NCBI GenBank assembly: GCA_040389325.1 | Contig: JAZKAC010000014.1 | Span: forward strand, 1-48,712 | Source of the DNA: Chlamydiota bacterium | GTDB lineage: Bacteria > Chlamydiota > Chlamydiia > Chlamydiales > Rhabdochlamydiaceae | Reading direction: 5' to 3' | DNA: 48,712 nt | Shown: positions 40,265-46,894 of the stretch, piece by piece | How the letters are laid out: the number at the start of each line of letters is the position of its first letter | How positions within the stretch are numbered: the first letter of the stretch is position 1 | Made by a program: the position numbers and the translations under genes | The notes under the pieces: generated by a model | The model's input: the letters and a program-made list of their open reading frames with translations, nothing else | What the model was told of the DNA's origin: nothing | Databases searched by the model: none

Positions 40265-43200
40265 ATGCTGGCAAAAGTATTTCTTCGATTTCCATACCGT
40301 ATCTTCCTTTTATTATTCCTATCTTTTAGCCCAATTCTTGCAAGCTATTCTCCAGCCCTTCTACCTTGCACGGAATCTGACCCCGATGCTTTTATTCAAC
40401 ATGTTGTTAATGTAATTACGGGAGAATATTTCGAAGCTGCTGAAGATCTATCCATTACGGCTCCCTCACCTCTTATCTTGCAAAGATTTTACTCAAATCG
40501 AGATTATCTTACAGGTACACAGCCAGGAGGCTGGCGGATTTTCCCTGAAAGATTTCTTGTTATAGGCAAAGACAGGCTAAAAACCTCTTATAGTAGAGCT
40601 TTTACGGGAGGACGATCTGGCGGAATCTTTTCATTTTTTGGAAAAATCAATGAGGAGGGTTTTTCAGAAAACCCACTAAAAATACGAATCGCTCAAGATG
40701 CTATCGGAATGTGTAACACCTCTACTGGCGAAATTAGCGGTCAGACTAATCATCAAAATGACCTACTGCACTCTAAAGGAAATCTTTGCGAGTTATTACT
40801 TGGAGACGGAACAAGATATATATATGAGCAGGTACAAAACCTCCCCTCCGACCTTCTTGGAGAAGAACTCATCCCCGTTATAGCTCTTCAGGTTTTGGAG
40901 CCCAAGTATTATAAGTTAGTCCAAGAAAACCTTCCTAACGGCAACTACCTATTTTTTTCTTACACGGAAAAAGGGCATCTAGCTTCTATTGAAATGAAAA
41001 ATAGCAAACAAAGCAAAATTCTTGCTTGGATCCGATTTACTTATCTTTTTAATGACTCCAAATGCACCCTCCACATCACAACAAGTGAAGAAAAGACAGT
41101 CCTATATCACTTAGAGAAAGTAAACGGTTGTTATCAACTAAAAGAGGTTTTTGGATCTCACATCATCCCTGTTTGTTATGAATACACAAACGGTCTGTTA
41201 ACAAGAAAAAATCTACCCGAAGGACGCTACAGCGAAATTGAGTACTATAAAGATGGAAAAGTAAAGGCTCTTAAATCTCCGAATTCCTGGGATGGTCATC
41301 CGGAAGTAACTCATAGCTTTTCTTATGAATCCGAGTGTACGGAAGTTTTCAACGCATCCAATATCAAAACATCTTATCGGTATAATGAGCGTAAAGAACT
41401 CTCATCTATTGAAACATATGATAACTTTGGACAGCCTTATCGTATAGATCGAAAATATTTTGGAAAGACACCGACCGATGCTGGATTGCTCCTTGCCAAA
41501 ACAACAGAAGATTCAACTGGTAAAATCCACTCCTATAGATCTTTTATCTACGACCCTAGCGGTAATATCCGAGAGGAAAGAGTATACGGCAATCTCACAG
41601 GGAATCCAAATGTATTTTTAGAGGTCAATTCGGAGGGGCTCCTTTTAAATCCTCATGAAGACGAGTGCTCCATAAAAAAATTCACCTATTCTCAAGACGG
41701 TTTCAATTTGCTTATCCAAATTGGCGACTGCAAAAATAATACAACTTCCCTTGCCTATAAACCTAAAACAAATCTTCTTGCTAAAAAAATACTCTGCTCC
41801 AACACTGAAGAGTATGATTATGATGATGACCCGATCAACCATGAAACAAAAAGTTTTTTCTACTATTATAATGAAGATGCCGCACGTACTAAAATAATAG
41901 AAACTGACGGATGGGCAAAAGAAGAAAAAGACATAGCCTCTAGCTCAAGAAAAAAAGTCACTGCAATCACTCCCAAGGATACGTTACCGGGAGTTGGACT
42001 CCCCTTAAGCACGGAAGAAAAAATCGTTGATTTGCAGAAAAAAAAAGAAGCATTCGTTAAAAGACATGTTAACTCCTACGATAACCAATGCCTTTGCCTT
42101 TCCTTAGACACCTATGGATCGGATGGAGTCCATGCTTTTTCTGAAGTATGGACTTATAACCATTTAGGACAAGTCCTCACACGAGTAGATGGCCTAGGAA
42201 GGGTCATAAAGCAAAGTTATGACCTCCTCGGCAACTTGGAATATATTTCTATCCCCCATGAAAACAAGACCATTTCTTTAGGCTACGATCTAAGGAACCA
42301 ACCCACCTCTAGCATAGAGTCGAGGGGAGACGGAGTTTTTTCTTCTCACAGCTCTTATGATCTTCAGGGAAGAAAAAATTCCTCTACGGATTCTTTCGGC
42401 AACACCACAACATATGAGTATGATTTCTGTGATAGAGTTATAAAGATCACCCACCCTACGGTATGGAATGAAAAAGAAGAGGCTATCTGCCCCATTTTCA
42501 CTTATACCTATGACATCTTTAATAATGTAACCAGTGTCACGGATCCTGAAGGCTATGTCACCCACACTTCCCATAATCTACGGGGAGATCCAACTAAAAT
42601 CACCTATCAAGATGGGTCATTTGAACTATTTAAATATGATCCTGAAGGCAGTTTACATCGATCTTTAAGTCGAGAAAAAATCATCACGGTCTATGAATAT
42701 GATCACCTGGGCAGAAAAAGCTACAAAGAGGTCTCTACAGCAGGAGCCAACGGAATTGAACTATTTTTATATGGTCACCGTTATACATATAATGCTTCTT
42801 ACTGCATTCAAGAAGAAATAACACAGGCCAATGAAGATGGATATTGGGAGCTAACCAAAAAATACACGTATAATATCAAAGGATTACTCACCTTGGAAGA
42901 TACAACGGGAGATCGCTCTGCTCCCCGCCAAGTACAAATGAAATATGATCCACTTGGCCGCGTGAATGAAACAAGAACCCGATTTTCAACGAAAGAAAAA
43001 GATTATTCAGTTGAGTCTTTTACCCACGATTTACTAAGAAATATCTTAAAAAAAGAGATTTCAGACAGCAAGGGAAACGTTTGCCTTATAAAGGGCTTTT
43101 CCTACAATGCATTAGGGCAATGCATCTTAGAATACGAAGATGATCCAAATAAGCCTTCTCTACAAATAATTTATGATGACCATTTAGAACCCAAAGCTTA

Positions 43201-46360: not shown

Positions 46361-46894
46361 AAAAACTATTCATCTTAGTCACACTATGCTTTATAATAAT
46401 TGGATGTTCTTCAAAGTCAAAAGACCCTTATATCACCAAAGAAGATTTTGCAATTAACAAAACACTAAATAACTACGCTATGTGGGTAGAGAAACGATAC
46501 CAAATCTATCCAATCGGAACAACCGTTGGTATGCCAAATGGAGTGCTTCGTATAATGGGTGTAGACTTTCAATCTTATAGAATTATGACCAAGCAAAAGG
46601 CTCGAGAAATCGTTATAAATTCTAGCCAAAAATTATTATCTATGATCAATTCTGAACCTATTGAGTATTCTACAAAATTGTTTGGTTGCCCGCCCTTTTG
46701 AAATCAAAAATATTGTCACGGAAATTTTTATAAGTGATACAGAAGGAAATAATACCATTTATGATCCTAATTTAGGTATTATCGAATTACGTAACGGTTA
46801 TTTAGAGTACGTTACTTTAAATGAATCTCATGATTATGTGTCAGAAAAAGAAGAGTCCTGCGAAGGGCCCCTTTCACCTTTGCGGTCAACTTAA
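46357..46894 (+). pseudogene. second copy of the lipoprotein immunity-like gene, frameshifted and 3'-altered
   Basis: There is an ATGA start/stop overlap with copy 1. Two track ORFs (46357..46701 and 46661..46894) together are collinear with copy 1 (MKKLFILVTLCFIIIGCSS..., YAMWVEK, GTTVGMPNGVLRIMGVDF, LLSMINSEP, then NCLVARPFEIKNI..NNTIYDP..GYLEY). Copy 1's codon CTC (46129..46131) is replaced here by ATTGAGTATT (46660..46669), a net +7 nt. The last ~10 codons diverge from copy 1. Confidence 0.65.

Follow-up and report, generated by a model that had tools for sequence, protein, structure and literature searches.

We analyzed a 48,712-nucleotide stretch of a Rhabdochlamydiaceae genome (contig JAZKAC010000014.1 of assembly GCA_040389325.1; hereafter the window), which carries towards its end a gene for a large RHS protein followed without a gap by the gene of a small lipoprotein, here called the partner. 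This module is an ordinary RHS toxin with a downstream immunity-like gene and belongs to a known toxin class. Its C-terminal tip is, on the evidence of a profile match, a structural model and the conservation of residues, a serine alpha/beta hydrolase of the esterase/lipase type, whose predicted catalytic triad could be placed by topology and conservation. We give about an even chance (probability roughly 0.5) to the reading that the two genes form a lipase-type toxin and periplasmic immunity module, widespread in environmental chlamydiae, which would serve in conflict between bacteria. An original prediction, made from the letters of the window without database searches, had described the locus as a polymorphic and surprising RHS toxin-immunity module; its architecture and its partner stood up to analysis, its polymorphism and its novelty did not, and the prediction had missed that the tip is a DUF687-like hydrolase. 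A literature search turned up no description of the partner family and no report of a connection between DUF687 and RHS. What appears modestly new here is thus an active-looking DUF687-type hydrolase tip on an RHS protein, a seemingly exported partner family which bears genomic hallmarks of immunity genes and is new to the literature, and the apparent existence of stand-alone forms of the same enzyme that have no partner.

The RHS protein and its hydrolase tip

The RHS gene was found as one complete open reading frame (ORF) with exactly the coordinates that had been predicted for it (Table 1), and the RHS repeats, the Rhs core and the DUF6531-like start that had been read from its sequence were all recovered with hidden Markov models (HMMs), which place the protein in the RHS-repeat family; the YD_repeat_2x family of NCBIfam matched it as well (E 8e-20). 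The many YxYDxxGR repeats of the original prediction are present in degenerate form, since there are just two instances of the strict pattern YxYDxxG, against 19 of the looser Y[DN]xxG. As for export, the N-terminus has a basic n-region, a hydrophobic core and small residues ahead of the predicted cut, and nearly all orthologues begin with an equivalent leader ending in ...LSA, after which a strongly conserved STESDPDAF...NVI.GDY follows; this pattern is consistent with Sec export of the whole 1850-residue protein. In line with what had been expected of this N-terminus, a Pfam scan of the protein found no PAAR, VgrG-binding or type VII (T7) domain; it found no Tc toxin or contact-dependent inhibition (CDI) domain either.

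At its far end the Rhs-associated core terminates in ...SPDPSGFVDGANRYAYLHNNPLNYFDRFGL, which reaches Leu1573. Its boundary, PLNYFDRFGL (residues 1564-1573), agrees with the predicted PxxxxDxxGL pattern, and the motif as a whole, SPDPSGF...PLNYFDRFGL, is of the PxxxxDPxGL type with Arg replacing the second Pro, which puts the protein among RHS proteins built of a core plus a tip. The Asp and the Gly-Leu positions of this motif are near-invariant among 45-72 orthologues, and the motif predicts an autoproteolytic cut after Leu1573 that would set off a tip of 277 residues. The linker with which the tip begins carries, between the Rhs core and the hydrolase, the motif HCxCxxHRTCKRGGD, which combines strong conservation with low AlphaFold confidence; it may serve in metal binding, disulfide formation or translocation.

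Beyond the linker, residues 1651-1790 matched Pfam DUF687 (PF05095) with 45.4 bits (E 5.5e-12) in a scan of the full protein and 50.1 bits (E 2e-13) when the tip was scanned by itself, both above the cut-off of 25. The match covers positions 29-164 of the 537 in the profile and the protein ends 60 residues past it; no C-terminal transmembrane bundle of the DUF687 kind follows the matched part in the tip, which therefore does not have the full architecture of that family. The only families that the Pfam scan of the tip returned at E<=10 were DUF687, Hydrolase_4, DUF3089 and Palm_thioest. An AlphaFold model of the tip, computed with 45 sequences, had alpha/beta-hydrolase topology at a predicted local distance difference test (pLDDT) of 87.6 and a predicted template modelling score (pTM) of 0.84. 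In this model Asn91-Gly92 (Asn1664-Gly1665 of the protein) form a putative oxyanion loop after strand 85-90, Ser171 (Ser1744) lies in a C-H-S-Q-G nucleophile elbow between strand 164-170 and helix 172-182, Asp221 (Asp1794) comes after strand 210-216 and His252 (His1825) after strand 238-241. Foldseek comparison of the model with the PDB gave 109 matches at E<=1e-3, with E about 2e-5 for esterases and lipases, and the top matches were cutinases and polyethylene terephthalate (PET) hydrolases, acyl-protein thioesterase 1 (APT1), monoglyceride lipase and pancreatic lipase. The TM-scores were only 0.35-0.46, so the tip has no close solved relative, and a sequence search of the PDB with the tip likewise gave nothing above chance level, its best hit being the HSxGA elbow of the esterase 5d8m at E 0.5.

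In all of the 45 RHS-borne and 10 stand-alone copies of the domain that were compared, the NG pair, the HSxG elbow, Asp221 and His252 are unchanged. Two further acidic residues, Asp227 and Asp251, vary among the stand-alone copies, and therefore Ser1744, Asp1794 and His1825 are predicted to form the catalytic triad. The substrate of such an enzyme would be a lipid or an ester.

Table 1. Features of the RHS locus and its flanks, with positions in the window
Feature	Position	Strand	Basis
IS66 TnpB remnant, two overlapping frames, between the dnaK terminator hairpin and the RHS gene	39679..40004	-	Pfam TnpB_IS66 on both pieces; NCBIfam IS66_TnpB
RHS/YD-repeat toxin gene, intact, ATG start, 1850 aa	40265..45817	+	ORF list; Pfam RHS_repeat, DUF6531, DUF687; NCBIfam Rhs_assc_core, YD_repeat
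Predicted Sec-type signal peptide, about residues 1-26 (MLAKVFLRFPYRIFLLLFLSFSPILA before the cut, SY after it)	40265..40342	+	Read by eye from the sequence; predicted cleavage
DUF6531 domain (PF20148), start of RHS shell, residues 46-100	40400..40564	+	Pfam E 1e-6 to 8e-8, above gathering score
YD-repeat shell, degenerate repeats	40565..44761	+	RHS_repeat E 9.5e-34; precomputed TEN_YD-shell PF25023; 19 Y[DN]xxG motifs
Rhs-associated core with predicted autoprotease motif (...YDPELGRW..SPDPSGF..NNPLNYFDRFGL), residues 1500-1573	44762..44983	+	TIGR03696 (Rhs_assc_core) E 7e-21
Linker, residues 1574-1650, conserved Cys/His motif HCxCxxHRTCKRGGD, modelled as disordered	44984..45214	+	Orthologue conservation; pLDDT <50 for tip residues 1-36
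Predicted DUF687-like alpha/beta-hydrolase toxin domain; Asn1664-Gly1665, C-H-S1744-Q-G, Asp1794, His1825	45215..45814	+	Pfam DUF687; AlphaFold model; Foldseek; invariant residues
Partner gene 1, 180-aa lipoprotein, lipobox LIGC, candidate immunity protein	45818..46360	+	Abuts RHS stop; homologue adjacent to tip in related loci
Partner gene 2, inactivated tandem duplicate	46357..46894	+	Pieces 74% and 55% identical to copy 1; DNA comparison of copies
Transposase-like element, DUF6399 C-terminal part, two overlapping frames, contig end	46891..48568	-	Pfam DUF6399 E 1e-28 on 46894-47625; ORF overlap 47540-47625

The partner as a candidate immunity protein

The stop codon of the RHS gene and the start of the first partner gene are joined as TAAATG. 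The original prediction had spoken of tightly coupled lipoprotein genes in the plural; the coupling and the immunity-like behavior were borne out, but only one of the two genes is intact. The second copy, whose start at 46357 overlaps the end of the first by ATGA, is interrupted by a +7-nt indel near 46655 that leaves the two pieces 46357..46701 and 46661..46894, and its last ~12 codons have been replaced where the transposase-like element begins.

A word-indexed homologue search for the partner yielded no more than 10-15 proteins, also when a profile of 26 sequences was used, and the family was recovered by running an HMM on six-frame ORFs from related loci. The 64 non-redundant loci searched with this HMM included 60 in which a partner homologue adjoins the tip; among the loci with a full-length RHS gene it was present in 34 of 35, the single exception ending at a contig edge, and it usually overlaps or abuts the toxin stop codon. 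A hydrophobic leader opens nearly all of the 74 partner sequences, in many of them with a lipobox and in others as what appears to be an uncleaved anchor, so that the soluble domain is expected to face the periplasm. Across 640 locus pairs the pairwise identities of tip and partner were correlated (r 0.63), and with a mean identity of 38% for the partner and 55% for the tip it is the partner that evolves faster, as is also seen in a pair of paralogous loci within one genome (L017 and L018) whose tips are 91% and whose partners are 57% identical. Furthermore, 16 loci hold 2 to 5 or more partner copies, 42-99% identical among themselves, and 10 loci hold downstream orphan tip fragments, 49-170 aa long and all of the same tip family, which are interspersed with partner genes; the window itself has no orphan tip and only the degraded partner duplicate. 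Since the partner abuts the toxin, is exported, co-varies with the tip, evolves faster than it and is amplified, it behaves like an immunity gene, and we infer that it neutralizes the tip.

Some of the related loci are of interest in their own right. Tandem units of a 3' tip fragment and a partner gene, repeated three to five or more times, occur at 8549-12337 of L056, at 8561-11173 of L057 (with a period of ~690 nt) and over the whole of L058, and at 10060-11183 of L012 there is a nearly complete, frameshifted orphan hydrolase domain ahead of a second partner gene. ORFs of 644 aa (L037, 7974-9905) and 388 aa (L024, 7098-8261) cluster with the partner family and may be fused or multi-domain partner proteins.

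The family has no entry that we could find in Pfam or NCBIfam, and the named homologues of the partner are all annotated as 'hypothetical'. Poxvirus_B22R_C matched both partner copies below the cut-off (E 7e-4 and 2e-3) and was absent from the partner homologues, and we regard the match as spurious; a sequence search of the PDB gave chance-level matches only. A structural model built from a 13-row alignment reached pLDDT 83 and has a mixed alpha/beta fold.

Conservation of the tip and its possible targets

The same tip family is carried by ~70 full-length chlamydial orthologues, and the labels of orthologues include Protochlamydia sp. R18, Parachlamydiaceae HS-T3 and Waddlia. When 86 homologues were aligned with MAFFT and identities measured against the window protein, the tip was 52-60%, the shell 41-48% and the core 53-69% identical in these orthologues, and in the 80%-identical relatives identity did not fall after the core motif. 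The break after the core and the hypervariable tip that go with the word 'polymorphic' are therefore not seen among them, and this part of the original prediction had to be given up. Unrelated tips were confined to distant shells of 24-39% identity, one of them with an AHH nuclease domain; conversely, some shells at only 25-32% identity bear the same tip family at 43-50% identity, and thus tips have been exchanged between shells over long timescales. In spite of this exchange the DUF687-like tip is, as judged from these alignments, the dominant one on these chlamydial shells. An exhaustive search with the tip gave 1115 cluster representatives at E<=1e-3, many with the match at the C-terminus of proteins of ~1700-1900 aa or ~2750-2900 aa (one of the distant ones, of 2907 aa, is labelled Chlamydiae). 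When one genome per species was scanned, 61 tip loci were found, nearly all in metagenome-assembled genomes (MAGs) labelled Chlamydiota or 'uncultured bacterium', with up to three or four tip copies per genome. Six loci with an RHS tip and partner of the chlamydial type sit in MAGs labelled otherwise, namely Verrucomicrobia SZAS (L019, L024 and L045), Alphaproteobacteria (L031) and Pseudobdellovibrionaceae (L032 and L058); most are on short contigs, and mis-binning or mislabelling is the probable reason.

The same hydrolase domain, with the predicted triad intact, also occurs in RHS-free proteins of 330-410 aa. Three of these, P0222 (L066/L067, 4001-5086), P0220 (L069, 3001-4113) and P0150 (L070, 310-1380), are 356-370 aa long and have the NG, HSQG, Asp and His residues in place; three stand-alone proteins, P0222 and P0220 among them, are hydrophobic near the N-terminus, in a segment that spans about residues 30-72. 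Three of the stand-alone loci (L066/L067, L069 and L070) had flanks long enough for a search, and in these no partner gene was found, even at E<=10. Since this holds even where one MAG (JAJACP) has both the stand-alone form and an RHS copy with its partner (L030), the partner appears to be tied to the Sec-exported RHS form.

In the reading that we prefer, the signal peptide would direct the 1850-residue protein through Sec, the RHS cocoon would fold, and the aspartyl autoprotease motif, to judge from its conservation, would cut after Leu1573 and leave the 277-residue tip inside the shell. The tip would then act as a serine hydrolase of the esterase/lipase type on membranes from their periplasmic side, and the 180-residue lipoprotein, lying in the periplasm, would neutralize it and so shield the membranes of the producer and of sister cells that receive the toxin. 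The targets may be other chlamydiae or co-infecting symbionts within one host cell. No adjacent gene points to the route by which the protein would leave the periplasm, for which the chlamydial type II secretion system (T2SS), outer-membrane vesicles or surface display are guesses.

Several points weigh against this reading. We know of no mechanism by which an RHS protein exported by Sec could get out of a diderm cell and into a second cell, and comparison of the partner model with PDB folds gave no significant match (best E 0.095) and so no recognizable fold relative. Across the clade the tip is conserved rather than diversified, which is unusual for a toxin of kin discrimination and would suit a conserved enzyme directed at the host; the hydrophobic segment of three of the stand-alone proteins resembles the membrane domain of chlamydial inclusion membrane (Inc) proteins, and the DUF687 proteins of Chlamydiaceae have indeed been predicted to be Inc proteins (PMC3048545). 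Members of Pfam DUF687 have, moreover, been said to lack catalytic residues (PMC11878206).

The conservation of the tip and the Inc-like traits speak at the same time for a host-directed effector, which we hold to be a serious alternative, somewhat less probable than conflict between bacteria. In such an effector the RHS cocoon would bring a lipase-like enzyme to the inclusion membrane, to host membranes or to host lipid droplets, the partner would only guard the envelope of the producer as the toxin passes its periplasm, and no interbacterial killing would take place. The obligate intracellular lifestyle suits such a role, as do the presence of the catalytic domain in proteins that have no partner and the several module copies per genome, which are often found for effector families. 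On the other hand, tandem arrays of diverged partner variants with 42-82% mutual identity and orphan cassettes of tip and partner are hallmarks of interbacterial toxin loci, self-protection alone would need no partner arrays, and a partner that tracks the tip and evolves faster than it fits an effector poorly. It is because of the diverged arrays and the orphan tip fragments in the relatives that we favor conflict between bacteria sharing a host, with which a purely host-directed role compares less well.

A more far-reaching version of the interbacterial reading, which we put forward only tentatively and consider rather doubtful, is that the module stands for a chlamydia-specific antagonism or superinfection exclusion among bacteria within one host cell, which does not depend on a type VI secretion system (T6SS) and proceeds by Sec and an outer-membrane step, and that the tip domain may be the active ancestor of the DUF687 Inc proteins of pathogenic Chlamydia. 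If that descent were true, an interbacterial weapon would be tied to a family of host interaction.

That the protein is instead a non-toxic surface or structural RHS protein, for instance a teneurin-like adhesin, with a hydrolase that is inactive or does housekeeping work and a partner that serves as lipoprotein anchor, chaperone or foldase, seems improbable to us. Lipase-specific foldases (Lif) are all-helical periplasmic proteins with an N-terminal transmembrane anchor, and they are encoded downstream of lipase genes, much as the partner is here. We rejected the partner as a Lif on account of its mixed alpha/beta model, which matches no solved foldase, and its want of a Pfam match. In favor of a structural role it may be noted that chlamydial RHS proteins were predicted to be outer-membrane proteins (PMC2811131) and that DUF687 was described as catalytically dead (PMC11878206). 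Against it, the Ser, Asp, His and oxyanion NG residues are invariant in every copy examined and the autoprotease motif is conserved, and an anchor or chaperone would poorly explain the diverged partner arrays and the orphan fragments. It is hardly credible that the locus is an artefact, in which the contig would be a chimera or contaminant or the gene a decaying pseudogene with a frame left open by chance: broken insertion sequence (IS) genes do flank it at the contig end and the second partner copy is degraded, but ~70 homologues of 1800-1886 aa align with the RHS ORF over 97-100% of its length and with no frame breaks, so that it is an intact gene, as had been predicted, and not an artificially long ORF, and chlamydial housekeeping genes are contiguous with it.

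Setting of the locus and comparison with known systems

The contig is chlamydial and no contaminant, as the original prediction had supposed from its core genes. Upstream lie hrcA, grpE and dnaK, the last ending ~640 bp before the RHS gene and followed by a terminator hairpin at 39630-39654, and elsewhere the window holds ftsK, a fused glyQS and a UPF0158 gene, the latter two being typical of chlamydiae; GC content is even over the whole window. The closest homologues of the RHS protein, 80-81% identical, come from read-archive (Logan) assemblies, and the locus of one of them (L001) has a chlamydial Hc1 histone-like gene just upstream, while the nearest named orthologue, 67% identical over its full length, belongs to a Rhabdochlamydiaceae MAG; the RHS orthologues at 81% and 67% identity sit on other chlamydial contigs. 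No secretion-system genes were found in the window, which agrees with the predicted lack of T6SS, TcA/TcB and CdiB-like genes there, and the 64 related loci share no flanking gene with it. Nor does a third gene recur in these loci near the pair of RHS gene and partner, the sole other cluster consisting of antisense shadow ORFs within the RHS gene. A promoter and terminator scan gave no more matches than were obtained with shuffled sequence, and Rfam found only a tRNA-His in the window.

The transposase-like ORFs at 46891-48568 (minus strand), of 244 and 342 aa, resemble one frameshifted gene, and the contig stops 144 nt beyond this element, in the way typical of assemblies that break at repeats. 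Farther away, a gene at 6128-9571 (minus strand) encodes a protein of 1147 aa in which only an N-terminal PPDK_N (ATP-grasp-like) domain is recognizable, the remaining ~750 residues having no Pfam match at E<=1e-5. A response-regulator receiver is fused to a metallo-beta-lactamase-fold domain in the product of 15707-17050 (plus strand), and a separate gene of that fold lies at 18424-19227 (minus strand).

The amoebae and other hosts of environmental chlamydiae often house competing symbionts as well. Protochlamydia is known to protect amoebae from Legionella, and polymorphic toxins are among the candidate explanations that have been put forward (PMC6520448). The RHS-hydrolase and its partner offer a conserved two-gene candidate with a predicted catalytic serine and a candidate antidote, and they offer a functional lead for DUF687, a family found only in chlamydiae and present in human pathogens. 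They also raise the question of how a Sec-exported RHS cocoon would exit a diderm cell that uses no T6SS for it. RHS toxins as such are not new in this group: the annotation of Waddlia includes Rhs family proteins, with rhs9 being one of the genes that the regulator Euo targets, and RHS toxins of chlamydiae with a Sec signal (the 'T2SS' route), in many RHS-linked classes, were catalogued in 2012 (Zhang et al., PMC3482391), so that the surprise voiced in the original prediction at such a toxin in a chlamydia was overstated.

The locus differs from CDI systems in that no two-partner secretion (TPS) domain, filamentous haemagglutinin repeats or CdiB were found on the protein or in the window. With the T6SS Rhs effectors (e.g., Tse15, PMC11461821) and the TcB-TcC cocoons it has in common the YD-repeat cocoon, the core autoprotease motif and a toxin of ~30 kDa expected within the shell. 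It stands apart from the former, as PAAR, prePAAR, a clade domain, VgrG and T6SS genes were not found on the protein or in the window and no such neighbor recurs in the 64 loci, and from Tc toxins, as TcB, SpvB and TcA were not found on the protein, in the window or in the 64 loci and no large neighbor recurs. The likeness to DUF687 proteins (CT326, CPn0066, CPn0069, CPn0381 and CPn0882) lies in the significant profile match to their hydrolase part and in the restriction of the family to chlamydiae. DUF687 proteins join a hydrolase-like domain to a C-terminal bundle of transmembrane helices (PMC11878206), and the tip is matched by the first of these parts alone; its Ser, Asp and His are present, whereas their lack in the family is taken from the published description, and the members in Chlamydiaceae are predicted type III secretion system (T3SS) Inc proteins and not RHS tips.

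The T6SS lipases of the Tle families are countered by periplasmic Tli lipoproteins, which often occur in tandem. Tle1-4 presumably correspond to Pfam DUF2235, Lipase_3, DUF3274 and PGAP1, none of which matched the tip in the Pfam scan at E<=10, so that it does not belong to them, and no Tle structures were among the listed Foldseek matches of the tip. The module resembles Tle/Tli pairs (cf. bioRxiv 10.1101/2023.03.28.534661) in having an alpha/beta hydrolase whose nucleophile is of the GxSxG type, a candidate immunity protein that is exported or a lipoprotein, and paralogues of that protein in tandem, and the location of the partner would by analogy follow the same logic; unlike these, the predicted toxin here would lie inside an RHS shell, has a Sec signal and has no T6SS genes nearby.

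The toxin class Tox-ABhydrolase-2 is defined by the signature 'NG, [DE], [KR], HSxG, D, H' and was reported on RHS proteins and in chlamydiae (PMC3482391). The invariant NG...HSQG...D...H of the tip agrees with this motif when the published string, and not a profile, is compared. A parachlamydial copy of the class was said to lack an immunity protein and possibly to act on the host (PMC3482391), whereas here the partner adjoins the tip in nearly all related loci.

As a Sec-dependent polymorphic toxin of the RHS/WapA type, Bacillus subtilis WapA provides a further point of comparison. The module is like toxins of this type (PMC3482391) in that a signal peptide stands where PAAR or VgrG would be, an RHS shell with the core motif precedes a predicted C-terminal toxin, and a candidate immunity gene lies directly downstream. 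It departs from them in its producer, a bacterium that is diderm and obligately intracellular, in its tip, which is conserved within its clade instead of hypervariable, and in its candidate immunity protein, which is predicted to be exported and membrane-anchored instead of cytoplasmic.

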